Below are positions 13 through 13,828 of a stretch of DNA of 32,000 bases, piece after piece. Source of the DNA: Rhodobacter capsulatus SB 1003 (GTDB lineage Bacteria > Pseudomonadota > Alphaproteobacteria > Rhodobacterales > Rhodobacteraceae); assembly GCF_000021865.1 (NCBI RefSeq), contig NC_014034.1:1350001-1382000 (forward strand), read 5' to 3'. A program made the position numbers and the translations under genes. The notes beneath the pieces were generated by a model that saw only the letters and a program-made list of their open reading frames with translations, was not told the origin of the DNA and did not search any database. Each line of letters begins with the position of its first letter. Position 1 is the first letter of the stretch.

Positions 13-1398
13 ATGGCGCTGGAAACTCTGGCGCAGCGGGCGCAGGCGGCGCTTGGCGGCACGCTGCGCGGGCAAGGCGCCTCGATAGCGCTGTTGGAGT
101 TTTCCGGCCCGCCCCCCGAGGAGGACAAGATCCGCGCCTTTCTGAGCGCCACGCCGCAATGCCATTTCACCCTCACCTGGGGCACGGGCGAGACCGAGGC
201 GCAGGCGATCAAGGCGGCGCGAGACCGGCAGTTTTCGCAGCTTGCCACGGTGGTGCTGCCTGCGATCATGGCGGGGGTGCGCCCCTGTGCGATCGATCAC
301 ACGCGGCCCGGCACGATCAGCGATTTCGACCTCAAGGAGCAGAAGGAACGTTTCCTTTGTGCCTCGGTCGCGGACCGGCGCAAGATCGGTCGGGTCGGTC
401 GGCCGCAATTGTTTCGCAAACGCCAGCCGCAACCGCCGCAAAGTTTCGAGGACATCGCGCCCGAGGACGCCCCCGGCCTCAAGCCAAATGTGCGGGGCAA
501 GATTGCGGTGATCGTCGCCGATGGCATGGGGGGCGGCGATCTTGCAAAGGCCTATGGCACCGACACCGCAGGGTTCAGCACTGCGATGGCGGCGTTTCGG
601 GCGCGTCTGGCCGAGGCGATCGAAGATTGGGCTAGCGCCGAGGGGCTGATTTACACCGACAAGGCGGGCGTGGCCCATGCAAGGGTCGATGTGCTGATGT
701 GGGGCGGCGATGACATGACCTTTGTCGTGCCCGCTTCGCATGTGCTGGGGTTTCTGGCGGCGCTGCAGGGGGTGCTGGGCGCGCCCTTCGACAAGGACAA
801 GGGGACGGCGCGGTTCGGGCACCGCATCGGCTGCGTGATCGCGCAGCGCAAGACGCCGATCCGGCTTTTGAAGAAACTGGCCGGCAGCGCCGAGGCGGCG
901 TTGCGCGATGCGGTGACGCCCGAGATGCGCAAGGCGGGGGTGTCGGTGGTCTCGCTTGACGTGTTCGAAAGCGCGCCTTTGCCCTTTGCCTCGATCCTCG
1001 ATCATCGCCGCACCGTGTATGGGCAGGGCTATCGCTCGGGCGCGGATGCGGTCTTGCTGTCGCATGTCGCCAAGATGGCGGCGGCGCTGCGGGAGCTGGA
1101 CGACGAGGAAGGGGCGATCCTGAAGATGTCGCAGATTTATCGGCTGCTCGATGTCGCGCGGCTGTCACGGCGGGACCTGTGCAGCAAGGCGGCAGATGAG
1201 GCGATTGCCGAGGCGATGAAGGGGCATTTCGAGCGGGTGAAGGGCACGCCACCCGATATGGCCGCGTGGGAAAATGGCTGGACCGGGCAGGCCTCGCGCG
1301 GGTTGGCGCTGCTTCTGGCGCAGGTGGCGCAACTGCAACCCTATGCGCAACCCTTTACCGACGAACGCGCCCGCGTTCTTTCGGAGGCCGTGCAATGA
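13..1398 (+). CDS. cas10: Cas10-like type III large subunit (Palm/cyclase part); N-terminus may continue upstream of the window
   Basis: The frame is open back to nt 1. Motifs KIAVIVADGMGGGD and VLMWGGDDMTFVVP (GGDD codons 703-714), followed by a helical tail (MSQIYRLLDV), reproduce the Cas10 Palm2 + D4 pattern. LLEFSG near the N-terminus resembles the Palm1 strand. The stop overlaps the ATG of the next RAMP gene (ATGA at 1395-1398). No HD motif is seen in the visible part. Confidence 0.7.
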   Translation: MALETLAQRAQAALGGTLRGQGASIALLEFSGPPPEEDKIRAFLSATPQCHFTLTWGTGETEAQAIKAARDRQFSQLATVVLPAIMAGVRPCAIDHTRPGTISDFDLKEQKERFLCASVADRRKIGRVGRPQLFRKRQPQPPQSFEDIAPEDAPGLKPNVRGKIAVIVADGMGGGDLAKAYGTDTAGFSTAMAAFRARLAEAIEDWASAEGLIYTDKAGVAHARVDVLMWGGDDMTFVVPASHVLGFLAALQGVLGAPFDKDKGTARFGHRIGCVIAQRKTPIRLLKKLAGSAEAALRDAVTPEMRKAGVSVVSLDVFESAPLPFASILDHRRTVYGQGYRSGADAVLLSHVAKMAAALRELDDEEGAILKMSQIYRLLDVARLSRRDLCSKAADEAIAEAMKGHFERVKGTPPDMAAWENGWTGQASRGLALLLAQVAQLQPYAQPFTDERARVLSEAVQ

Positions 1399-3041
1399 CC
1401 GCGCCACTTGTGTTTGATGTCACGCTGTCGCTCAAGGCACCGTTCCTGTTTCCCGGCCAGGATCCCGGTCGGTTCGGCTATGACCGGGTCGCGCTGCGCG
1501 ATCTGGACGGTCGGCCGATCATTCCGCAAGACCAGATCAAGGGGCTGATCCGGCATGGTCTGACGATCATGGGCGAGACCGAGCTGGTCGAGGGGCTGAT
1601 GGGCAAGGGCTCGGCCGATGCGCGCAAGGACAGCGGCGGGGCGTTCGAGCCCGCCAAGGGGCGGATGTTCCTGACCGATCTGCGCTGCACGATCGAGCCC
1701 GATCTGCGCTCGACCGACTACCACCGGGTGCAGATCGACGACGAGAGCGGGGCGGCGAAACAGGGGCATCTGTTGCGGATCGAGCAGGTCTTTGCGCCCG
1801 AACGGGAGGTTGCCTTCAGCGGGCGGATCACCCTCTTTCCGACGGCGAAAGCGCCCGATGCGCAGGCGCTTGCTCTGCTGCTCGCGGCGGCACTGCAGTG
1901 CAAGCGCCATATCGGCGCCATGGCCTCGATCGGTTTTGGCGAGGTCAGCGGCTGCTCGGTGGAGCCGGCCCTGGAAGCCGAAGAGGCCTGCAAGTTGCCG
2001 GCCGATCCGGTCGGGCGGTTCCTGTGGCGGTTCCGCGTCGATCGGCCCTATCTGGTCGATGCGATCCGCACCGACAACGGCTATATCGGCCAGCCGACGA
2101 TTCCGGGCGGGGCGCTGAAGGGGCTGGTGGCGCGCTGTGCCGAGATGCGCGGCAACCCTCTCGATGCCCAAAGCCTGTCCGACACCGTTTTCGGCCATGC
2201 CACGCAACATGTGGCTCAGGCACTGCCGCTCTCGGTGGTCTGTCTCAAGGAAAAGGGTGCCGAGACCTGCCGCGATCTGGCGGGGAAGGGCGCTTTGCCC
2301 GATGGCGTGACCTTGCAGATCGACTGGAAGGCGGTTCACGAGGCGGCCTGTGTCGCGGGTTTCAAGCACTGTCTTGCGCCGCCGCCGCGCCATGTCGAGC
2401 GGGTCCACACGCAGATCGATGCGACAACCGGGGCGGCGCAGGATGAGAACCTGTTTTCGACCACCGCTGTGGTGCCGGGGAACGATGTGTTCACGGCCCT
2501 CGTCGATACCTCGGCGCTGAGCGCAGAAAATGCCCGCGCCGTGTTGAGTGCGCTTTGCGCGCCGATGCCGGGATTGGGTCGCACCGATGCCCGGGTGGAG
2601 CCGATCGACTTCGTGACGGACAAGGCACCTTCTCCGGTGACGGGCACGGTTGCGCTGGTCCTGCAAACCAAGGCCTGGATCGAGGTGGATCCGGCGCTGC
2701 TGCGTCACGATCCGCTTGCGGCCTATGCGCCCGCGTTCAAGGCCTTCTTGCCGAATTCGACGCTTCTCGAGGTTCATGCGGCTCAGGAATTGCTGGGCGA
2801 CTATCTGGCACGGCGGTTCACGGGCCAAAGTGGCTACATGCCTTGGCTGGTCACCAGTCGGGGGTCGGTTTTCGTGCTCGATGTGGCGCCGAGCGATCAG
2901 GCCGAACTGGCGGCGCTGCAGCGCAAGGGGCTTTGTTCGGCGACGCGGGACGGCACCGCGCTTGACTGGCAAAGCTGCCCCTTCGTCGCGGAAAACGGCT
3001 ATGGCGCATTCCTCCTCTCATCGGTCGGGGGTTCTCGATGA
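1395..3041 (+). CDS. Two-RAMP fusion protein (Cas7-like N-terminal domain + Cas5/Csx10-like C-terminal domain), 548 aa
   Basis: ATG 1395 overlaps the cas10 stop. First RAMP: IIPQDQIKGLIRHG (about nt 1518-1559), RVQIDDESGAAKQGHLLRIEQV, and G-rich loop IGAMASIGFGEV. Second RAMP: TIPGGALKGLVAR (about nt 2097-2135), HTQIDATTGAAQDENLFSTTAV, and tail GSVFVLDV...ENGYGAFLL, typical of Cas5-family (Csm4/Cmr3/Csx10) C-termini. The Cas7 versus Cas5 assignment of each half is inference. Confidence 0.7.
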   Translation: MTAPLVFDVTLSLKAPFLFPGQDPGRFGYDRVALRDLDGRPIIPQDQIKGLIRHGLTIMGETELVEGLMGKGSADARKDSGGAFEPAKGRMFLTDLRCTIEPDLRSTDYHRVQIDDESGAAKQGHLLRIEQVFAPEREVAFSGRITLFPTAKAPDAQALALLLAAALQCKRHIGAMASIGFGEVSGCSVEPALEAEEACKLPADPVGRFLWRFRVDRPYLVDAIRTDNGYIGQPTIPGGALKGLVARCAEMRGNPLDAQSLSDTVFGHATQHVAQALPLSVVCLKEKGAETCRDLAGKGALPDGVTLQIDWKAVHEAACVAGFKHCLAPPPRHVERVHTQIDATTGAAQDENLFSTTAVVPGNDVFTALVDTSALSAENARAVLSALCAPMPGLGRTDARVEPIDFVTDKAPSPVTGTVALVLQTKAWIEVDPALLRHDPLAAYAPAFKAFLPNSTLLEVHAAQELLGDYLARRFTGQSGYMPWLVTSRGSVFVLDVAPSDQAELAALQRKGLCSATRDGTALDWQSCPFVAENGYGAFLLSSVGGSR

Positions 3042-5665
3042 AACATCTCAGAAGATACCGCCTCGAATGGACGGTGCTGACGCCGCTGCATGTGGGGGCG
3101 GGGCAATCCGAACTGCGTGCGCATGACGAGGAAGACGCGTCCGAAGTGGCGCTGATCGCCCGCGATCATGCGGGCAAGCCCTGGATTCCGGGCAGCACGA
3201 TCAAGGGGGCGCTGGGAGCGACCTGCACCGATGTAAAGGTGCGGCTGTTCGGCAAACCGCATGAAAAGGGATCGCAGCAGGCCCGCGGTACCCTGACTTT
3301 TTCCGGGGCGCGTTATGTGTCGAAAGCGGGCAGCAGCGCTAGTTTCGAACTCGCCCAAACCAGTGTCGCCGTAGGCACCGGCGTTGCGGCGGCCAACAAA
3401 CTCTATCGGCGCGATTTCGTGCCCGAAGGGGTGACCTTCACCTCCGATATCGACGTTGAAAGCGGCGACGAACCGACGGTGCAGGCCGATTGCGCCGCGC
3501 TTGAAACGCTGCTTGCGCTGGCAGCCTCGTCCGAGGGGCTGAACCTCGGGGCCAACAAGGCCGATGACCTTGGACGGCTGCAGATCACCCGCATCGAGCG
3601 TGCCGAGAGCCGCTTTGGCCCGACCGGCTGGACCGCACAGACCTTTGCCCCGCACACGATCGCCGCCTCAGCCCCGGTCCGGGCCCCGCTCTTCGGTCTG
3701 CGCATGGTTTGCCCCGGCCCGTTCCTCTCGAAGGGCGGGCAGACGGACAACGAAACGCAGCCGCTGATGGATGCTGCGGGCAAGGCCCCCCGCATCATGG
3801 GGACGGCGGTTTCCGGGGCGCTGCGCAAACGCGCCGAATGGCTTTGGGCGCTGCACCTGCATCGCGGTGGTGGTGCCGAGATGAAAAGCTGCAAGACCTC
3901 GGCCGGACCGCGCGACCTTGATCCTGTCCAGCGCCTCTTCGGCTACGAAGGCCGCCGCGGCCTGTTGCAGGTCTCGCCGCGCAATGTGTCGGCCAAAGGA
4001 TCCTGCCAGATCCCCGGCGTCAGTCTCGATGCGATGACCGCCGCGCCTCGTGATGGGCTCTTGTTCTTTTACCACGCCCATCACGGCGTCACCTTCGATC
4101 TGTCCATCTCCACCCGAGCCGACCTTGACGCAGCCGAGACCAATCTTTTCGACTTGCTCAAGGCTGATCTGGAGGCCAATGGCCTCAAGCTTGGCATGGG
4201 CACCACGAAAGGCTTCGGGTGGTTTTGCTCCGATCAAGACCCTATCCTGAAGCACTATTCCGAAAAACAGACGGAAGCGTTGAAGCTCAAATCGAAAGAG
4301 GATCCCGCGGACCATTACGCCGAAGCGGAATTGCCATCGAACCTCGTGACCATTCCCTACCGTCTCAGCCGGATCGACCCGAACGTGATACAACTCCCGG
4401 AGCAACGGGTCTCGGATCGCTTCTCGAACCATGCGCTGTTGTCGAAGCCGATGCCCGCTGCCGCCTCGGGCCATATCGATCTGGTGTGGCATGTCGAAAC
4501 CCCGGTTCTGGTCGCGGCGCAGACGCATGACCATACCAAACCGCCCAAGGATGTGCCTTTCCAGAAGATCGGAGATACCTTCGCCATTCCCGGTTCTACG
4601 ATCAAGGGCATGTTGCGCGCGGAACTGGAGCGCCGGGTAAATGCCCGCGCCTATAGAATTATCGAAAACCTGCTTGCAATCACTGACGACCCCGAGGCGG
4701 AAAGGCCGCATCTCGATGCGAAGAAGCAACTGGCCGCTTTCAAGGCGCATCGGCCGGATGTGAACGAAAACTACACTCCTGATTTCGCCGAAGCGCTCTT
4801 TGGCTTCGTGCGCGAACCCGAAAGCGACGACAAAAGCCGCAGTCGCCATGAAGCCCTGCATCTCAAGGCGCGTATCTCCTGTGGCATGGCTTGGCTGGTG
4901 TCGGAGTACGACGCCGACAAATCCAGAGACGAACTCTACGTCATCGCGGCTGCCGAGCCGCGCCCGATCTCGAAGTTCTACGATCACTTCGGTCGCAAGG
5001 CCTATCTTGTGGACAACGCGTCGGCCGCCGATGTGGTGGCGCGTTTGAAAGCCGCAGAAAGGAAGCTCGACAAATACGCCTCCCCCCTGAAATTGCTTCA
5101 TCCGAAACAAGGGCAAAACCTTCTCTTTGCGCAGCGCATCTATCTGCACAACATGACCGAAGCAGAAATCGGAGCCTTCCTGACCGTGCTCACGCTTGAT
5201 TTCACCCTGCGCAACCGCTTCCTCATCGGACGGGCCCGGGCGTTCAATGCGGGCAAATGCTTCCCGGCGAAGATCAAACTGACATTGACGCCGAACGATG
5301 CCGGGGCAGATTACCCGGCAAGGGGCGGCAGCAAAGCCGATATGCGGATGATCGGACAATCCGCAACGCCCTTCCTGTCTGCCTTCGGAAAATTCGTCAA
5401 CTCTGGCGAAGATCCGAGCACCGCGCGAGACCCGGCTCTCGCACGGTCGATGGGGTTTGCCGCCAAAGAGTTCAATGCCGCGCATGACCCGCTTTTCGGG
5501 GATTATCTGCGCAAGCGTTCGCGCCTCGATGACGGCAAGATCTATTACCAGCAGACGAGTGACGACCCGAAGAACCGGAATTTCTCCGCTTCGGACCGCC
5601 AAAAGGCCTTCGAGGCGAACAATGGCCGTCTGGCCGCCGTGTTGAAAAAGACATGGCGGGACTAG
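3038..5665 (+). CDS. Three-RAMP (Cas7-like x3) fusion protein, 875 aa, with a ~130-aa non-RAMP C-terminal tail
   Basis: ATG 3038 overlaps the upstream stop (ATGA). There are three copies of the RAMP helix motif: WIPGSTIKGALGA (nt 3182-3220), IMGTAVSGALRKRA (3794-3832) and AIPGSTIKGMLRAELE (4583-4620). Each is followed by an LFG-type strand (LFGKPHEKG, QRLFGYEGRRGLLQV, ALFGFVREP) and a G-rich loop (LGANKADDLGRL, LGMGTTKGFGWF, IGRARAFNAGKCF). Confidence 0.75.
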   Translation: MKHLRRYRLEWTVLTPLHVGAGQSELRAHDEEDASEVALIARDHAGKPWIPGSTIKGALGATCTDVKVRLFGKPHEKGSQQARGTLTFSGARYVSKAGSSASFELAQTSVAVGTGVAAANKLYRRDFVPEGVTFTSDIDVESGDEPTVQADCAALETLLALAASSEGLNLGANKADDLGRLQITRIERAESRFGPTGWTAQTFAPHTIAASAPVRAPLFGLRMVCPGPFLSKGGQTDNETQPLMDAAGKAPRIMGTAVSGALRKRAEWLWALHLHRGGGAEMKSCKTSAGPRDLDPVQRLFGYEGRRGLLQVSPRNVSAKGSCQIPGVSLDAMTAAPRDGLLFFYHAHHGVTFDLSISTRADLDAAETNLFDLLKADLEANGLKLGMGTTKGFGWFCSDQDPILKHYSEKQTEALKLKSKEDPADHYAEAELPSNLVTIPYRLSRIDPNVIQLPEQRVSDRFSNHALLSKPMPAAASGHIDLVWHVETPVLVAAQTHDHTKPPKDVPFQKIGDTFAIPGSTIKGMLRAELERRVNARAYRIIENLLAITDDPEAERPHLDAKKQLAAFKAHRPDVNENYTPDFAEALFGFVREPESDDKSRSRHEALHLKARISCGMAWLVSEYDADKSRDELYVIAAAEPRPISKFYDHFGRKAYLVDNASAADVVARLKAAERKLDKYASPLKLLHPKQGQNLLFAQRIYLHNMTEAEIGAFLTVLTLDFTLRNRFLIGRARAFNAGKCFPAKIKLTLTPNDAGADYPARGGSKADMRMIGQSATPFLSAFGKFVNSGEDPSTARDPALARSMGFAAKEFNAAHDPLFGDYLRKRSRLDDGKIYYQQTSDDPKNRNFSASDRQKAFEANNGRLAAVLKKTWRD

Positions 5666-6525: not shown

Positions 6526-8504
6526 TCAGTAGTCCTGCAGCTGCGGCAGGTAGGGGACCGTTTCCGGGCTGCGGCAGTGGCGGGCGAGCGCGCGGGCCTC
6601 TTCGAGCATGATCCGGCGCAGGGCGTGGCGCTGTCCGGTCTGGCTGGAGCGGATCACCCGTTCCAGCGCCTCCTCGTAGCCGGTGATCAGCGCGCGCCGA
6701 CCGGGGGTGAGGAGGCGCAGGCTGTCGCCCTGCGGCTCGAACATCTCCTCGCGCAGGCGGCGGCGGTTGAAGAGGCTCACCGCCAGCCCCTCGGAGAGGG
6801 TGGCGCGGAACACCTCCATCAGGTCATAGACGGCGGCGTCGCCCCGGTCCTGCGCCTGATGCAGCACGCCAAAGCCGGGGTGCAGCCCCGCGCCGATCAG
6901 CGCGGCGCGGATGTCGCGGGCCAAAAGCGCGGTCAGGTAATTGATCGCGGCGTTGAGGGGCGTTTTCGCCGGGCGTTCGCACAGGAACGGCCCCTTGTGC
7001 GCGGTGCAAAGCCGCGCCAGCGCGGGCCAGTAGATCCGGGCGGCCCGCCCCTCATGGCCGCGCAAGGTGTCCAGATCGGGCATCGGTGCGGCAAGGCCCC
7101 GGATCGCGCGGCCAAGGGCGGCGATGGCGCGGTCCACCTCGGTCGCCTTGGCGGAGCGGTTGAGCACGGCAAGCCGCGCGCGCTGGTTGCGCAGCCGCGC
7201 CCCGACCAGAACCCGCGCCAGCGCCAGACGCCGTTCGGGATGCAGCACAAGCGCGGCCTGCGCCAGCTGCAGCTGCGCCTCGGCGGGCTGCGGCGGGGCA
7301 AGATAGCCCTGCGTCTTGCCATGGCCATCGAGAAAGGCAAGCGTGGTGTCGGTGGCCAGCGCATGACGCCAGACCGGGTCATCGACCACGGCGCCCGGGC
7401 CCAGCTCGATCCGGTTCACCCGCGCGGGCGGCAGCGACAAAAGCAGGCTGCCACCGCCATCGAGCACGGCGAAACTTTCGGCGCGCAGGCTCAGGCGGCG
7501 CTCGGGCTCGACCAGATAAAGCACCCGCGCCCCCGGATCGTAACCCGCCGCCACCGCCTCGGCCGTGGCCGCGTCGGCCTCGGCCAGTTCGCGCATCACG
7601 GCGCTGGCGTCGGGGTCGGGCTCGTCTGGGGCGGGCAGCACGAGCGAGCGGACGAAAAGCTGGCCCAGAAACTGAAAGCCGCGATCGAACCCCACCACCC
7701 GCGTTTCGCGCGAGACCATGCGCAGGCCGTGACCGGCGACGAACTCCTCGGCGAGCGCGCGGGCTTCCTCGGCCCCGGCCTCGCTGCGGGCGAGGATGAC
7801 GAAATCATCGGCAAAGCGCACGATCCGGGCGGCGCCGCTGTCGAAACGGTCGTCGAGCCCGTCGAAGAAGAGGTTCGACAACAGCGGCGAAAGCGGCGAG
7901 CCCTGCGCCAGACCGCGCCCCGGCGTGCCAAGCTGGCCCGAGCCATGCGCAAGCCAAAGCCCGACAAGGTCGATCAGCGCGCGGGTGCCGGGGGCGGGAT
8001 CGAGCGCGGTATCGAGCGCCTCGAGCACCGGGTCATGCGGGATCCGGTCAAAGGCCTTTTCGATATCGGCCTCGACCACCCAGGTGTAGCCCATCCGCCG
8101 CAGGGCCGAGATCCGGTCCACCGCCATCGCCACCGAACGGCCGGGGCGGTAGCCGTAGCTGTCGGGGGAAAACAGCGGCTCGAGCCGGGGGTCAGCGCGG
8201 CGGCGACGGCGGTTTGCACGATCCGGTCGGAGACGGCGGGGATGGCGAGGCGACGGGTGCCGCCGTCGGGCTTGGGGATCTCATGCAGGCGCAGCGGCCG
8301 GGGTGCGTAATTTCCGTTGCGCAACAGCCCCGACAGCCGCGCGATCGCCGCCGCCCCCTTGGCGGCAAAGGCTGCGATGCTTTGCCCGTCGCCCCCCGCA
8401 CATCCGTTGTTGCGCCGCACCTTTTCGAATGCCAAGGTGAGGGCATGGGGGTCGGAAATCTGGCCAAACAGGCCCGAAAATCGGCCTTCGTCGTTGGAAA
8501 TCAT
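6526..8504 (-). CDS. cas1: Reverse transcriptase-Cas1 fusion; reading frame interrupted by an apparent 1-nt frameshift near 8187-8191 (possible pseudogene or sequencing error)
   Basis: The N-terminal piece runs from ATG 8502-8504 (MISNDEGRFSGLFGQISDPHALTLAFEKVRRNNGCAGGDG...GGTRRLAIPAVSDRIVQTAVAAALTP) and carries RT motifs 0-2. The downstream frame continues PRLEPLFSPDSYGYRPGRSVAMAVDR...SPLLSNLFF...IVRFADDFVIL, with the FADD catalytic box around 7804-7815. The C-terminal half is Cas1-like (TLRGHEGRAARIYW...NAAINYLTALLARDI...GLHPGFGVLHQAQDRGDAAVYDLMEVFR). Confidence 0.85.
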
Positions 8505-8647: not shown

Positions 8648-8971
8648 GCCCAGACACCTCTCCCGCCAGTAAGCGGATTGAGACTCTTCCATCGAGCACT
8701 TGCAACCAAACACCCCGTGCCCAGACACCTCTCCCGCCAGTAAGCGGATTGAGACCTCCTTTCTCCACCCCGCGGGGTGTGCGCACGTGGCCCAGACACC
8801 TCTCCCGCCAGTAAGCGGATTGAGACGGGCGTATTCACGGCCCACCAACGCCCCCCATGCGGTGCCCAGACACCTCTCCCGCCAGTAAGCGGATTGAGAC
8901 GGAAGATTTTCGGTCATCTTACGCGATCCGCATAGCCCAGACACCTCTCCCGTCCATAAGCGGGTCAGCCG
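8648..8971 (+). CRISPR. CRISPR array 2: 5 repeats (last degenerate), 4 spacers
   Basis: Same 37-nt repeat at 8648-8684, 8719-8755, 8790-8826 and 8864-8900. A degenerate terminal copy lies at 8935-8971 (GCCCAGACACCTCTCCCGTCCATAAGCGGGTCAGCCG). Spacers are 34, 34, 37 and 34 nt. Degeneration at the right end supports a leader on the left and plus orientation. Confidence 0.95.
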
Positions 8972-9807
8972 AGGGGCGTCAGCCGCACCCTTCCCGCGCC
9001 GATGGTGGTGTCGGCGCCGATGTGCAGCGCCTCGGCCAGCGTGAGCAGGCGGCGCAGCTCGGGCGGGGGCGCGGAAAAGGCGATGCGGCCGGAAAAGCCC
9101 GGACGCGGTTTCGTGCCCCGCGCCAGCGCCCGCCGTTCGCCCGCAACGGCCGGGGGGGCGGCGCGCAGCGCCTCGGCCAGCTCCGCCTCGGGCAGATCGA
9201 GCGCAAAGCCGTGCCACTGCGCGATCCCCTTGGCGCGTTTGGCAAATCCTGTCAGCAGCGAGGCGGGATCGAGGCCCAGCCCCGCGTGATCGGCGCGCAG
9301 GCGCTGGATGATCGGGGTTTGCGTGCGCAAAGCCAGCGCCCCCGCAGGCGGGGGGGAAGCCGTCAGTTGCGCATGGGACACGGCGGTGATCTGCATCGGC
9401 ACCCGGCCCGCGCGGCCCAGATCAAGGCCGCCGCGCAGCCCGGCAATCAGCGCGGCGCGAAACTCGGGCGCCCAGTCGCAGGCGGCCCCGAAAAGGCGCA
9501 GCGTGATGGTCAGATCCGCGCCTTGCGCATCGGCGCGCAGCACGAAAGGTTTGGGCAGCTCGAAGCCTGGGTTCAGCGCGCCTTGCGGGTTGTGAAACAG
9601 GTCGTAAGCGCAGGGCGGATCATAGGGGCAGGGCGCTCCCGCCAGCGCCTCGGGCGAGGCGGAAAGCGCCAGCGCATGGCCCATCGCGCCGCGCACCCGG
9701 CCCAGTGTGGCCGTGCCCGCCGCAAGCCCGCCATGCCCCGCGATCTGAACCACAAGGTCGCGGGCACACAGGGCGGGAAGGAAGTCCTTGAGCGAAATCG
9801 GCTGCAT
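8965..9807 (-). CDS. cas6: Cas6-family pre-crRNA endoribonuclease (RAMP)
   Basis: Start taken at MQPISLKDF (ATG 9805-9807). LGRVRGAMGHAL...CPYDPPCAYDLFHNP...LPKPFVL matches the N-terminal pattern of the Cas6 family seen with RT-Cas1 systems. The C-terminal GFSGRIAF...LHIGADTTIGAGRVRL is the Cas6 G-rich loop. The stop (8965-8967) lies inside the degenerate terminal repeat. Confidence 0.7.
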   Translation of the reverse strand: MQPISLKDFLPALCARDLVVQIAGHGGLAAGTATLGRVRGAMGHALALSASPEALAGAPCPYDPPCAYDLFHNPQGALNPGFELPKPFVLRADAQGADLTITLRLFGAACDWAPEFRAALIAGLRGGLDLGRAGRVPMQITAVSHAQLTASPPPAGALALRTQTPIIQRLRADHAGLGLDPASLLTGFAKRAKGIAQWHGFALDLPEAELAEALRAAPPAVAGERRALARGTKPRPGFSGRIAFSAPPPELRRLLTLAEALHIGADTTIGAGRVRLTPLG

Positions 9808-9985
9808 GGCGCAGTCTTTCGCCGCGCGGAGGCAAAGATCAAGCCCGGCGTGTTTGCCGCGGCGAAAGGCCATTGCGAGGGCGGCAAAATGCGCTCAGGA
9901 AGGGGGAGAAAAGAAAAACCCCCGACCGGGGTCGAGGGCCTGCTAGCGGCGTACCGCTTCGCGTGGATGTTCGCGAGGTAGCAGA

Positions 9986-10630
9986 TTGAGCGAAAAAGAT
10001 CAACAGGAAACAAGGGCCGCGCGCGCGGCGCTTTATATCGACGGGTTCAACCTTTATCACGCGATCGACCGGCTGGGGCAGCCGCATCTGAAATGGCTCA
10101 GCTATTGGCGGCTCGGTCAGGTGATCTTGCCGCAAAAGACGCAAAAGCTGGTGCGGGTGGTCTATTGCACGGCGTTTTATCCCGGTTCGGCGGGCAAGCG
10201 CTGGCGGCACGAGCAGGTGATCGCGGCGCAGCGGGCCGAGGGGGTGGAGGTGGCGCTGGGCCATTACGTGCATGAGCGGATGATGTGTCGCAGTTGCGGC
10301 GATCGCTGGGAGAAGCCGACCGAGAAGGCGGGGGATATCAACCTCGCCATCCATCTGATGCATGACGCGTTCGAAGATGTGTTCGACCATGCCTATCTGC
10401 TGACGGCCGATTCCGATCAGGCGGCGACGGCGGCGATGTTCGCGCGGCACTTTCCCGAGAAGCGGCTGACGACGGTGGCGCCGCCCGGCCGCGACCCTTC
10501 GGTGCATATCCTGCGCCACGCCTCGGGCGGCAAGATCAAGCTCAATGCCGGGCATCTTGAGCGCGCGGTGATGGGGGCCACGGTCGGCAAGGCGCGGCGG
10601 CCCGACGAATACGCCCCGCCCGAGGGCTGA
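9986..10630 (+). CDS. NYN/LabA-like (PIN-related) predicted RNase
   Basis: ALYIDGFNLYHAID at the N-terminus, CRSCGDRWEKPTEKAGDINLAIHLMHDA and LLTADSD together form the NYN (DUF88/LabA) motif set. TTG start at 9986, with no in-frame ATG upstream of the domain. Confidence 0.75.
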   Translation: MSEKDQQETRAARAALYIDGFNLYHAIDRLGQPHLKWLSYWRLGQVILPQKTQKLVRVVYCTAFYPGSAGKRWRHEQVIAAQRAEGVEVALGHYVHERMMCRSCGDRWEKPTEKAGDINLAIHLMHDAFEDVFDHAYLLTADSDQAATAAMFARHFPEKRLTTVAPPGRDPSVHILRHASGGKIKLNAGHLERAVMGATVGKARRPDEYAPPEG

Positions 10631-10633
10631 GGC

Positions 10634-11104
10634 TCAGCGGCCTTGCGTCAGTTCAAGCCAGACCTGTGCCATCGCCTCGGCATCCGGCCCGGCCCGGTGC
10701 GGATGCGGCAGCGTGGCGAGCAGATCCTGCGCGCGGCCGAGCGCCTCTGCGCCGAAAGTATCGCTGACCGCATCGTCGAAATGCAAAAGCTGCACCGGGC
10801 GGCGCAGCAGCATCGTCAGCCATTTGCCGTCGAATTCGGGGCAGTCGGAAAGGACATGAGCCCCAAGCCGCGCTTCGACCGCCTCGGCGACGATCTCGGC
10901 CGCGGGGGCGGTGTGCAGTTGTTCCCGCGCGATGCCGTGGATCTCTGCCGAACGCGGATCCCAGTCGGCCTCGCTCCAGCCCGGGCGAGGGTGAATGAGG
11001 CAAGACCATGTCTCGATGCCAAGGGAGGAGAGCCGCGACAACCCGATTTCGATAGGCCAACCCGTCAGGCTCGAGGCTTCGATGTCGATGAAGATCGGGG
11101 TCAT
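10634..11104 (-). CDS. DEDDh (DnaQ-like) 3'-5' exonuclease
   Basis: FIDIEASS (DxE), SDCPEFDGKWL (D) and HRAGPDAEAM (H-x4-D) give the DEDDh motif order. Convergent with the NYN gene with only 3 nt between the stops. Confidence 0.75.
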   Translation of the reverse strand: MTPIFIDIEASSLTGWPIEIGLSRLSSLGIETWSCLIHPRPGWSEADWDPRSAEIHGIAREQLHTAPAAEIVAEAVEARLGAHVLSDCPEFDGKWLTMLLRRPVQLLHFDDAVSDTFGAEALGRAQDLLATLPHPHRAGPDAEAMAQVWLELTQGR

Positions 11105-11143
11105 GAGGATATCACCTTGAGGGCAGGCTACGGAATGTCATGT

Positions 11144-11155
11144 GAGCACGTGCTC
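11144..11155. repeat. Perfect 12-nt palindrome GAGCACGTGCTC about 40 nt upstream of the exonuclease start
   Basis: Read directly from the sequence. It lies in the lower-GC intergenic stretch 11105-11402. An operator function is speculative. Confidence 0.3.
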
Positions 11156-11402
11156 TGCTTTTGGCGCAAAATACCCGCCGAGGATAGGAGTGGCATGCTG
11201 TAACCGAGCGCCTTCGAGCCGCAGACACTGAAGCAGAGAGGCGTCGATCGAACCAGAATCTCTTCAATCCTTGTCCGCTGGCGCGCAGACGTACGCAGCG
11301 CCGTCTCGCCTGACAACTTTTCATGCACGTAAATGGACGCATTCCGACTGTCGCCCCGCGCTGCTATCCTGCGGAGAAACTCTTGGCGCAAACGGCGGTT
11401 TC

Positions 11403-11615
11403 ATGGACGATGGCTCGGGCGTTGCCCTGATCGGATTGATCTTTTCCCTCTTCCTTCTTTGGTTCGTCCTTTGGGTCGTTATCCTCCTTCCGGCGCGCAT
11501 GGCGCGCAAGCGCGGGCGCAGCGCGGTTGGATGGGTGCTCGTCAGCCTGATCTTGTCGCCTCTCGTTGCGATTGTTCTCCTTGTTCTGCTGGGTCGAAGC
11601 TGGACCGCCCGCTGA
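11403..11615 (+). CDS. Small two-TM membrane protein (70 aa), function unknown
   Basis: MDDGSGVALIGLIFSLFLLWFVLWVVILLPARMARKRGRSAVGWVLVSLILSPLVAIVLLVLLG: two hydrophobic helices separated by a basic loop. T-ending codons are more frequent than in neighbouring genes, and the RBS is weak. Confidence 0.45.
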   Translation: MDDGSGVALIGLIFSLFLLWFVLWVVILLPARMARKRGRSAVGWVLVSLILSPLVAIVLLVLLGRSWTAR

Positions 11616-11707
11616 CGGATCGGTCCCCCAAGGGAAAACGCATCTTCCGCCCCGCGCGCCACGCCCGACCCGGAGGTGCCGGACCCCCAAGGCTGCGCCT
11701 TGACGGC

Positions 11708-13828
11708 TCATGGCTCTCGCCCGAAATCCTCGCGCGCCGAGGGCGCCTCTGGCATCCGGGGCGCCACCAGCCCCGCCCGCAAAATCTCCTCGGCATCGGG
11801 CGAGGCCCGCGGCCCCGCAAGCGACAGCAATTGCGTGCCGGTGCGGGGGACCGCCGAAAGTCGCCTGATCGCCACGGCGAGGGTCGGGACAAGGTCGTGA
11901 TCTGTCTTTCTGGCCGGCTCCGGCAGCTTGCCGAGGCCCCGCGTGCTGCCGGCGACCATGCCGGTGCGCACCGGCTCATCGGCCCAGAGCGCATATTCGT
12001 AGCCGCAAATCGTGCCCGTCCGATCCCGGTGCGCGAGCAGCCAAAGATCGGGGCGGGGGTGCAGCAGATCCTCGAACACCACCGGCTGACCTTGCGGATC
12101 GTCCTTCGCCCGCCGCGCAAAGTGTTCATGCAGGGCGCGGACCATATCGAAGGTCATCCGCTTGACCGTGATCCGTTCGGGCGCAATCTCGCGCGCGGAA
12201 TGGAGCGCCGGGCGCAGCTGCGGGAACAGGTCAAGCGGGGCGGCTCGGGTCAGGCCGCGCCGCAGGTCGGTTTCGGACCGGGCCCGTTCGCGCAGGGCGG
12301 CGTTAGCGGCGCGGAGCAGGGTTTTGCGGATGTCCGAGGGCAGGTCGGCAAGATCATCCGCAATCCTTTCCGTCCAGTCCTCGGCCTCATGCATTTTCTC
12401 CGCACGATCCTTGCGGCGGGCGGTGCGGCTCAGGTCGTTGCGATGCATTTCCTCGGCCCGGGCGGCAAGTGCCGCCGTGATCGGCGGGGGCAACACCGGA
12501 GGCCCGGACATTGCCGCCGCCCGCCGAAGCCGGACGCGCAGCAGTGCCCCGGTCGGATCGGGCGGCATCAGCGTGGTAATGCCGCGATCTGCCGCAGCGC
12601 GCATCAAAGCGCGAGAAATCGGGGTATCGTCGGTGATGTCGAGCGTGGCCCAGCCCCGCGCCGCGATCATCTTCAGTGCGATCTCGATGCGGGGCCGGAT
12701 CGCCCCCGGCCCACCCATGCGGATGACCTCGCCCAGATCGGTCACCCAGCCGCCATCGCGCAGGAAGACCATGCGGCGAGGGGCGGCGAGGTTGATGACG
12801 GCGATCTGATCCCTCAACTGCAGATCGTCTAGCAAAGCCATGTGCAAGGCACCGACCTGCGCGCGGGCGCCTGCGGGGCGACGCCCGATCCGGGCCGATT
12901 TTCCGCGGCCATAGCCCCGGATCGTCAGCCGTGTTTCGCCCGGTGGCATCGGCGTGGGCGTCATGTGTTGATCAGGCAGCGGCCCGAGCCGCGCCACAAG
13001 CTCCGCATGGCTCTCCCCCGGGATCAACCGGCTGACCGCCACCGCCTCGGACCCGCCGCGCAGATGGATCACCGCGCCCCGCGGGGTCTTGCGATATCCA
13101 AGCCCAAATCGTCCAAGGCGCGCCAGCACCTCGGCCCATGTCTTCGCGCTTTCCACTCCCTGCCGGAGCGCTGTCATCGCCTCGATGGGTAACCGCAGGT
13201 GCAGCGGGAGGTGCCCGCTGATGCGCGCCTGATCGATATCACCTTGCCGCAGGTCGGCTTGGACCTTTCGTCGTGCCTGTTTCAATGCCCAATCTTCGGC
13301 TGGCCGAGGCACGAGCCGCACTGCCGGGACGGGGCCGGTGTCGTCGATCTCGACCCGAAAACGGCCATTGTCGCGTGCCCATCCCTGCAGGAGTTCAATC
13401 TCGCGGCAGGCCAACTCAAGCCGGGTGTAATCCTGCCACCTGTCCACCAATCGTCCGGTGATCGGATGGACCCGGCTATATATCGTGTGGACGTGGATGT
13501 GCGCGGTGTCGCGATGCACGCCGATCACGGCTTCATGCCCCTCCGCCCCGAGCCGTGCCATCGCATGTTTGGCCGCCACCCGCGCCTGATTATCGCTCGG
13601 GACTTCGCGCGCGGGCCATGACAACACAATGTGGACATGGGCCGTGCGCGGGTTGCGGCGATGCCGCTGGCAGGTCGCGGCCATCTGCGCCGCCGCGACG
13701 TCGATGCCCCCAGGGATGCACGGGGTGTCGATGTAAGTCGCTTTCGCAGCAACATAATCGATGCGGGCCGCGAGCCCATGATCAGCGGACCGGATTTCTT
13801 GCCTAAGAGCGATGATTTTGCCGATCAT
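11708..13828 (-). CDS. MobA/VirD2-family relaxase with long C-terminal extension (706 aa)
   Basis: The N-terminal 150 aa carry HVHIVLSWP and the histidine triad HRDTAHIHVHTIYSRVHP, typical of the relaxase/mobilization nuclease domain. The remaining ~550 aa were not assigned. Confidence 0.85.
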   Translation of the reverse strand: MIGKIIALRQEIRSADHGLAARIDYVAAKATYIDTPCIPGGIDVAAAQMAATCQRHRRNPRTAHVHIVLSWPAREVPSDNQARVAAKHAMARLGAEGHEAVIGVHRDTAHIHVHTIYSRVHPITGRLVDRWQDYTRLELACREIELLQGWARDNGRFRVEIDDTGPVPAVRLVPRPAEDWALKQARRKVQADLRQGDIDQARISGHLPLHLRLPIEAMTALRQGVESAKTWAEVLARLGRFGLGYRKTPRGAVIHLRGGSEAVAVSRLIPGESHAELVARLGPLPDQHMTPTPMPPGETRLTIRGYGRGKSARIGRRPAGARAQVGALHMALLDDLQLRDQIAVINLAAPRRMVFLRDGGWVTDLGEVIRMGGPGAIRPRIEIALKMIAARGWATLDITDDTPISRALMRAAADRGITTLMPPDPTGALLRVRLRRAAAMSGPPVLPPPITAALAARAEEMHRNDLSRTARRKDRAEKMHEAEDWTERIADDLADLPSDIRKTLLRAANAALRERARSETDLRRGLTRAAPLDLFPQLRPALHSAREIAPERITVKRMTFDMVRALHEHFARRAKDDPQGQPVVFEDLLHPRPDLWLLAHRDRTGTICGYEYALWADEPVRTGMVAGSTRGLGKLPEPARKTDHDLVPTLAVAIRRLSAVPRTGTQLLSLAGPRASPDAEEILRAGLVAPRMPEAPSAREDFGREP

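Follow-up and report, generated by a model that had tools for sequence, protein, structure and literature searches.

CorA-type III CRISPR-Cas systems signal with SAM-AMP (S-adenosylmethionine-adenosine monophosphate), which is degraded by NrN or by SAM-AMP lyase, and corA usually lies beside a gene for a phosphodiesterase (NrN or a nuclease of the DEDD class) or for the lyase (PMC10600005, PMC11229360, PMC13294483). Both NrN and lyase were reported to be indispensable for defence (PMC13294483), and the DEDD class was assumed to degrade SAM-AMP in the manner of NrN (PMC10600005, PMC11229360, PMC13294483). This signalling came to light only in 2023. NrN and the lyases have been demonstrated to be its off-switch; for the DEDD class, which many loci carry, that role is still presumed. 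CorA-associated DEDD nucleases of type III-B loci are known from Streptococcus oralis and Syntrophothermus lipocalidus (Chi et al., 2023, PMC10600005; Hoikkala et al., 2024, PMC11229360). The type III-B locus of Bacteroides fragilis has, beside cas6, a gene for an NYN protein, a Mn-dependent, sequence-nonspecific endonuclease of single-stranded RNA with no activity on SAM-AMP (Chi and White, 2024, PMC11346440). This protein was proposed to trim the 3' ends of CRISPR RNA (crRNA), and the same authors stated that NYN accompanies type III systems only in Bacteroides (PMC11346440). Here we describe two convergent genes, for an NYN ribonuclease and for a DEDDh exonuclease, which adjoin cas6 in the type III-D2 locus of Rhodobacter capsulatus SB 1003. 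The analysed DNA, a stretch of 32,000 nt referred to below as the window, covers contig positions 1350001-1382000 of the 3.87-Mb genome; window coordinates are counted from its first letter (position 1).

Two further systems are close enough to be compared. The type III-D2 system of HyVt-522 makes SAM-AMP as well as SAM-AMP2 and has a two-gene VapBC-like (PIN) module by corA (2026, PMC13294483); the module was needed for defence, not for growth arrest, and was proposed as an off-switch (PMC13294483). HEC-09 (PADLOC-DB; Payne et al., 2024, preprint, doi 10.1101/2024.01.29.577857), proposed as a defence family, was defined by its location inside Hma (helicase-methylase-ATPase) systems and protected against none of the phages tried.

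A cassette shared by divergent CorA-type III loci

Four intact copies of the NYN/DEDDh pair were compared: one in the window, one in R. lacus, and two in R. capsulatus SP108, which has two CorA-type III loci with one copy each. The blastn comparison with R. lacus gave homology only for window 9854-11105 (89.4% nucleotide identity), and that with locus A of SP108 for 9871-11105; the flanks were non-homologous in both cases. Nucleotide identity of the cassette to the two SP108 copies was 92-94%, and the two genes were 85-97% identical among copies. In all copies, the homology broke off sharply at the start codon of the DEDDh gene (11105) and 115-132 bp upstream of the NYN gene. The proteins of the R. 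lacus pair, likewise convergent, were 90% and 94% identical to those of the window, and R. lacus CorA, Cas10, and Cas6 were 31%, 30%, and 30% identical to their window counterparts.

The loci around the copies were arranged differently. The gene order in R. lacus was DEDDh, NYN, CorA, Cas6, Cas10, and RAMPs, and locus A of SP108 shared this order from DEDDh to Cas10, its cassette adjoining a CorA locus of the R. lacus type. The NYN gene was divergent from corA in R. lacus and from cas6 in the window. The second SP108 copy (B) adjoined a cas6/RT-Cas1/cas2 block of the window type, which was joined to a third effector module; CorA of this module shares 48% and 26% identity with those of the other two, and its Cas10 shares 28-31%. 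The junction of this block with a divergent effector-plus-CorA module is evidence that modules have been swapped. In each of the four intact copies, the DEDDh gene shared a locus with corA; the two were one gene apart in R. lacus and SP108-A and 10 kb apart in the window and SP108-B. In R. capsulatus SP36, which has no CRISPR-type CorA, only a 366-bp remnant of the cassette spanning the 3' ends of both genes was present (L088:10050-10415). Intact copies of the cassette were encountered only within CorA-type III loci, at two independent junctions and with three divergent effector variants; its recurrence in these divergent loci and its decay in SP36 support a link in function between the cassette and the type III locus. 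The SP36 remnant sits in a mosaic accessory region.

The only PDB match for R. capsulatus Cas10 and Cas7-5 was the III-D2 complex 9WXH, the solved structure from the HyVt-522 system, and Cas10 of the window retains the glutamate of the EGVNL motif and the glutamine, the SAM-contacting residues in 9WXH. Because it combines III-D2 architecture and CorA with these two conserved residues, the R. capsulatus type III system is, by its sequence, assigned to the SAM-AMP kind.

Both cassette genes were under purifying selection. The ratio of nonsynonymous to synonymous substitution rates (dN/dS) among cassette copies was 0.03-0.10 for NYN and 0.15-0.19 for DEDDh; for the latter, comparison with a lone metagenomic copy of 85% identity gave 0.16-0.31. 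Synonymous divergence (dS) among the R. capsulatus copies was about 0.10 for NYN versus 0.32-0.50 for DEDDh. The two halves of the cassette are thus mosaic, with different divergence histories.

The first-pass annotation of this DNA had placed the two reading frames beside cas6, between the RT-Cas1/Cas6 module and the mob genes, and this description held: both are intact, real genes, convergent, with 3 nt between their stop codons (TGA at 10628-10630 for NYN; TCA on the plus strand at 10634-10636 for DEDDh). The NYN gene starts with TTG, preceded by GAGG 7 nt upstream, and the DEDDh gene starts with ATG. The DNA upstream of the DEDDh start (window 11105-11260) was wholly different in each of the four copies, and a clear ribosome-binding site (AGGTGA) was present in the window copy only. 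The hairpin on the minus strand within the NYN leader (Table 1) would halt transcripts of the DEDDh strand ahead of cas6. An antisense interplay of the two genes is possible, because the DEDDh transcript must cross the whole NYN gene in antisense to reach this hairpin. Within 9700-11700, no Rfam family was matched and no sigma-70-like promoter was found.

A palindrome noted earlier at the gene junction, GCTGAGGCTCAGC, is present, one base away from its first placement (10626-10638 instead of 10625-10637). The opposed stop codons, TGA and TCA, dictate half of its sequence. It was not conserved in the R. lacus copy, and the junction folded no better than shuffled sequence (z = +0.75). For these reasons we regard the palindrome as incidental; the lack of conservation in R. 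lacus and of excess folding ruled it out as a functional element.

Table 1. Coordinates of the cassette and of neighbouring features (positions in the window unless the contig is named).
Feature	Position	Strand	Basis or remark
NYN/DEDDh cassette, 1.24 kb	9871-11105	.	sole DNA common to otherwise unrelated type III loci; blastn
NYN leader/promoter region, part of cassette	9871-9985	plus	alignment of four cassette copies; conservation begins ~9870
Terminator-like hairpin and T-run, inside NYN leader	9916-9941	minus	consensus scan; sequence kept in all cassette copies
NYN-domain (PIN-like) ribonuclease, 214 aa, HEC-09 family	9986-10630	plus	Pfam NYN, PADLOC HEC-09
Minimal stand-alone DEDDh 3'-5' exonuclease or phosphodiesterase (predicted), 156 aa	10634-11104	minus	Exo motifs, fold model
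cas6	8965-9873	minus	Pfam CRISPR_Cas6 on called gene in identical loci; divergent from NYN gene
RT-Cas1 (main frame)	6526-8133	minus	Pfam RVT_1 and Cas_Cas1 on same gene in sister strains
cas2, 96 aa	5662-5952	minus	Pfam CRISPR_Cas2 on sister-strain gene
Type III-D2 effector genes Cas10, Cas7-5, Cas7x3	13-5665	plus	Pfam and PADLOC matches
corA	contig 1347182-1349284		just outside window, directly upstream of cas10; PADLOC CorA 1.7e-128
Relaxase	11708-13828	minus	flanks DEDDh side of nuclease pair

On the minus strand, the genes follow in the order cas6, CRISPR array, RT-Cas1, second CRISPR array, and cas2; the Cas1 family match on the RT-Cas1 gene lies at contig 1356670-1357521. With its McrBC, relaxase, and AddAB-like genes, the window as a whole forms a mobilisable defence island. 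A 70-aa open reading frame located between DEDDh and relaxase genes (11403-11615, plus strand) matched the phage family phrog_9201 (9e-11). Just before corA, at contig 1341005-1343008, genes for a SLATT_5 membrane protein and then a defence reverse transcriptase of the UG17 class (PADLOC 2.9e-135) were found; upstream of them are genes for a resolvase and a type III restriction enzyme, and downstream is a fragment of an integrase gene.

The NYN and DEDDh proteins

The NYN protein exceeded the cut-off of Pfam NYN (PF01936) with 26.9 bits versus 24.2 (E 7.9e-6) and matched PADLOC HEC-09 at 7.4e-39 (131.5 bits, profile positions 3-190 of 203). The aspartate triad D19/D117/D142, together with D144, was invariant across 26 homologues (alignment A2). 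The spacing of the triad resembles that of D13/D118/D143 in the B. fragilis protein; the reference triad is formed by the acidic active-site residues D358/D426/D452 of the MARF1 NYN domain. C61, C101, C104, H75, and H93 were likewise invariant, and this Cys/His cluster suggests a zinc site. The AlphaFold model had a predicted local distance difference test score (pLDDT) of 93. Foldseek searches with it retrieved 2QIP (1.6e-8) and the NYN domain of MARF1 (5YAA/6FDL, 1e-5 to 2e-4), and no other PDB structure scored below 1e-3.

The DEDDh protein has all three motifs of its class, Exo I (DxE), Exo II (D), and Exo III (Hx4D). Among 22 homologues (alignment A1), D7, E9, D87, H136, and D141 were invariant, and D92 was either D or E. 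The match to Pfam RNase_T (PF00929) was below the cut-off (18.5 bits versus 24, E 0.0031); some homologues do carry PF00929, and PHROG 192 matched the protein at 1.3e-10. Word search gave 27 homologues, the exact protein was recorded in 110 blocks of the contig collection, and a protein-atlas look-up returned unnamed exonuclease clusters only. Sequence search of either cassette protein against PDB chains gave no match.

The AlphaFold model of the DEDDh protein (pLDDT 96.6) aligned best with the exonuclease domain of DinG (Z 16.4, root-mean-square deviation 3.3, 149 aligned residues) and with epsilon (Z 15.9). Its structural neighbours at Z 16.4-13.3 were the DinG exonuclease domain, epsilon, Cas2-DnaQ, Cap18, RNase AS, RNase T, and Orn, and they also included the RNA 3' exonucleases 3'hExo and ERI. 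The best Foldseek E-value was obtained with the DnaQ domain of Streptococcus thermophilus Cas2-DnaQ (8H2F; 2.2e-8, Z 15.2). The DEDDh gene is stand-alone, about 4.7 kb from cas2, and neither fused to nor in an operon with cas2 or cas1; the search for longer, fused relatives of the protein found none, which is weak evidence. Prediction of a complex between the two cassette proteins scored 0.01 and gave no verdict either way.

The PADLOC model 'DEDDh, Cas-associated' (PDLC01247) matched the DEDDh protein over its full length (5.5e-9). This match was dropped as evidence, since DnaQ-like genes of the same genome scored 1e-22 to 2.5e-40 and the model is therefore generic. Elsewhere in the genome, at contig 2281205-2281684 and 3059298-3059777, two DEDDh domains with identical scores lie in 811-aa open frames and resemble a duplicated exonuclease-fusion gene or a repeated element.

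Possible role of the pair and alternatives

Because the intact cassette was found only inside SAM-AMP/CorA type III loci, the pair is likely to consist of signal-reset and RNA-trimming enzymes and not of spacer-making ones. By analogy with the described systems, we favour the reading that the cassette is a portable accessory of SAM-AMP-signalling type III CRISPR-Cas loci in Rhodobacter, the DEDDh protein being a signal-degrading phosphodiesterase and NYN a nuclease that processes crRNA or other RNA; we hold this assignment to be evenly balanced between right and wrong. The DEDDh 3'-5' exonuclease would remove the 3'-terminal AMP from SAM-AMP, which is the NrN reaction, and would proceed stepwise from SAM-AMP2. 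Removal of SAM-AMP would close the CorA channel and reset immunity, a job that in other CorA systems falls to NrN or SAM-AMP lyase. NYN would be a metal-dependent endonuclease of single-stranded RNA serving the RNA processing of the system, most probably by trimming the 3' ends of Cas6-cut crRNA, as was proposed for the B. fragilis protein. Searches with Pfam, PADLOC, and PHROGs found no NrN, SAM-AMP lyase, or VapBC-like genes in the stretch from corA to the relaxase or immediately upstream of corA; the DHH/DHHA1, SAM-lyase, and PIN/VapC searches covered recognised open reading frames, and unrecognised small ones may remain.

Several observations weigh against this reading. The fold of the DEDDh protein does not tell whether it is a phosphodiesterase for small molecules or an exonuclease for DNA or RNA and gives no substrate, because varied exonucleases all align with the model at similar Z-scores. 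The cleavage of SAM-AMP by DEDD enzymes is itself a proposal in the literature read (PMC10600005, PMC11229360, PMC13294483). The three loci collapse to two independent junctions, the cassette is peripheral in both, and in the window 10 kb separate the DEDDh gene from corA. Beyond Rhodobacter, the two families did not accompany each other. In a survey of Rhodobacteraceae with one genome per genus (300 genera), a DEDDh homologue was present in 12 genera, an NYN homologue in 10, and both in none; the 1.5 kb around 40 DEDDh loci and 13 NYN loci contained no partner gene. The genomes of 185,579 species, scanned with the trimmed DEDDh alignment A3, yielded 79 DEDDh loci, and at 74 of these the 10-kb flanks contained no NYN, CorA, or Cas gene. 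The neighbours at the 74 loci were VapBC/FitA-PIN and helix-turn-helix antitoxins, the restriction enzymes MmeI and HsdR, GmrSD, TniQ, insertion sequence (IS) fragments, and integrases. CRISPR-type CorA was absent in 25 genomes with DEDDh homologues, and the CRISPR link was confined to a DEDDh sub-clade at protein identity of at least 87%. The metagenomic DEDDh copy of 85% identity adjoins a gene for a DruE-like helicase and has no NYN gene. NYN homologues of 57-62% identity sit at a prophage end or by IS or phage genes, and some of them adjoin housekeeping genes. When 400 alphaproteobacterial genomes were surveyed for CorA, only two further matches emerged. One lies outside a CRISPR context; the other belongs to a type III-D-like locus, the single additional alphaproteobacterial CorA-type III locus examined, which has neither cassette gene. 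The CRISPR link applies to the cassette of R. capsulatus and R. lacus and not to the wider families.

In part of the Rhodobacteraceae loci, the DEDDh homologue belongs to a conserved series of small genes (an unknown protein of 136-161 aa, DEDDh, an unknown protein of 68-86 aa, FitA-like, and PIN), which in some loci is followed by an MmeI-type restriction-modification enzyme and resembles the cargo of integrative elements. The type III-D-like locus mentioned above (L174:8854-12603, minus strand) encodes RT-Cas1 and a 1249-aa protein whose C-terminal part is the CRISPR-type CorA match and whose N-terminal region of about 700 aa had no Pfam match.

On a rival view, the two genes, a HEC-09-type NYN RNase and an orphan DEDDh exonuclease, are independent cargo of a defence island or mobile element at the edge of the type III locus and do not work with CRISPR. 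The wider families of both proteins occur in prophage, integrative-element, restriction, or toxin-antitoxin contexts, never together, and the 85% identical DEDDh copy stands by the DruE-like helicase gene. The strong match of NYN to HEC-09, whose definition rests on its place inside Hma defence systems, the peripheral position of the cassette in both locus architectures, and the mobilisable defence island formed by the window point the same way. Set against this are the restriction of the intact cassette to CorA-type III loci, across two junctions and three effector variants, and its decay where the locus is missing. In addition, the Rhodobacter loci would otherwise be left without the signal-degrading enzyme that characterised CorA systems need, and HEC-09 protected against no phage tested. 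We regard the cargo explanation as rather unlikely. The alternative in the first-pass annotation, an independent two-gene defence or toxin module, found no support for the pair as such, the families not co-occurring outside Rhodobacter. If the assignment favoured here is wrong, the pair would be two more uncharacterised defence-island nucleases.

Two other explanations keep the pair within the CRISPR system and give it different work. Joint crRNA maturation, in which NYN would cut the 3' handle exposed once Cas6 has cleaved and DEDDh would polish the end to the effector edge while SAM-AMP is turned over by a housekeeping or unrecognised gene, seems quite improbable to us. A complementary endonuclease and exonuclease carried as one cassette would suit a common substrate, the cassette abuts cas6 in the window, and RNase T, RNase AS, 3'hExo, and ERI are among the structural neighbours of the DEDDh protein; in Staphylococcus epidermidis, type III crRNA is trimmed by the 3'-5' exonucleases PNPase and RNase R (PMC11346440). 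However, in published work DEDD nucleases accompany corA, and the loci concerned lack an NYN gene (PMC10600005); the differing dS of the two cassette halves speaks against tight co-adaptation. The first-pass annotation had suggested prespacer processing, in which NYN would make RNA prespacers and DEDDh would trim them for RT-Cas1. All cassette-bearing loci do have a gene for Cas1 or RT-Cas1, the best Foldseek E-value belongs to the DnaQ domain of Cas2-DnaQ, and a role of NYN in trimming RNA protospacers was left open by Chi and White (PMC11346440). Loci of the R. lacus type, however, place the cassette by corA, about 12 kb from cas1 and at the far end, and the DEDDh protein is not fused to Cas2, nor were fused forms found, which counts weakly. 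The Z-score of 8H2F is within about 1 Z of those of epsilon and Cap18 and 1.2 below that of the DinG exonuclease domain, in a group with epsilon, DinG, Cap18, and RNase T at Z 14-16. We know of no RT-Cas1 system that needs a dedicated DEDDh enzyme. The proposed link of the pair to CRISPR was supported by its presence in divergent CorA-type III loci, and prespacer generation or trimming, a poorer fit to the corA-adjacent position in R. lacus, the roles in the literature, and the fold, appears very improbable.

The favoured reading, an accessory for signal reset and RNA processing, can be extended to a self-contained, exchangeable unit that is picked up and swapped by divergent SAM-AMP/CorA systems and whose numerous relatives, on prophage-like islands and integrative elements, are signal-degrading enzymes directed by mobile elements against nucleotide-based immunity. 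This extension is speculative and, in our estimate, improbable; if it were true, these relatives would parallel viral ring nucleases and the SAM-AMP lyases of phages.

Both accessory classes, DEDD and NYN, are already described for SAM-AMP systems. In the searchable literature, we found neither the pairing of DEDD with NYN, nor such a pair in alphaproteobacterial III-D2 loci, nor a discrete cassette that persists when effector modules are exchanged. The Rhodobacter loci show that NYN accompanies CorA-type systems outside Bacteroides too, and that accessory genes can be retained or exchanged as one block when the effector modules change. The cassette offers a compact DEDD candidate and an NYN partner within the III-D2 system of a genetically tractable native host, R. 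capsulatus strains of the SB1003 type.

Comparison with described systems

The Rhodobacter DEDDh protein was likened to the DEDD proteins of Streptococcus by description and locus context. As in the type III-B loci of S. oralis and S. lipocalidus, it is a small DEDD-type exonuclease in a CorA type III locus without NrN or lyase, and RNase T and oligoribonuclease are among its structural relatives. Unlike those proteins, it is encoded in an alphaproteobacterial III-D2 locus, tail-to-tail with NYN and, in the window, at the cas6 end, and its nearest sequence relatives are non-CRISPR genes of mobile elements. The DnaQ domains of the Cas2-DnaQ fusions of type I-E adaptation modules (8H2F/8H18) have the same DEDDh fold and gave the best Foldseek E-value; in contrast to them, the Rhodobacter protein is neither fused nor adjacent to Cas2, and the match is not separable from those to epsilon, DinG, Cap18, and RNase T.

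The Rhodobacter NYN protein was set beside that of B. fragilis by residue spacing, fold matches, and locus context. Both have the NYN fold with three catalytic aspartates and the same best PDB matches (2QIP and MARF1), and the gene for each adjoins cas6 in a locus that also contains CorA and RT-Cas1. The Rhodobacter protein differs in belonging to an alphaproteobacterial III-D2 locus and to the HEC-09 family, in its Cys/His cluster, and in having a DEDDh partner instead of NrN. With HEC-09 it shares the full-length match to the profile hidden Markov model and an NYN domain with the MARF1-like aspartate triad; no Hma genes are present in the window, where its neighbours are cas6 and the DEDDh gene. 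The VapBC-like module of HyVt-522 is, like the Rhodobacter cassette, a two-gene accessory with a nuclease of the PIN superfamily located among cas6, corA, and cas10 of a III-D2 locus. The two accessories differ in content and arrangement: no VapBC-like genes were found in the Rhodobacter locus, which has DEDDh and NYN in place of VapB and VapC, and the Rhodobacter genes are convergent and do not form an operon.

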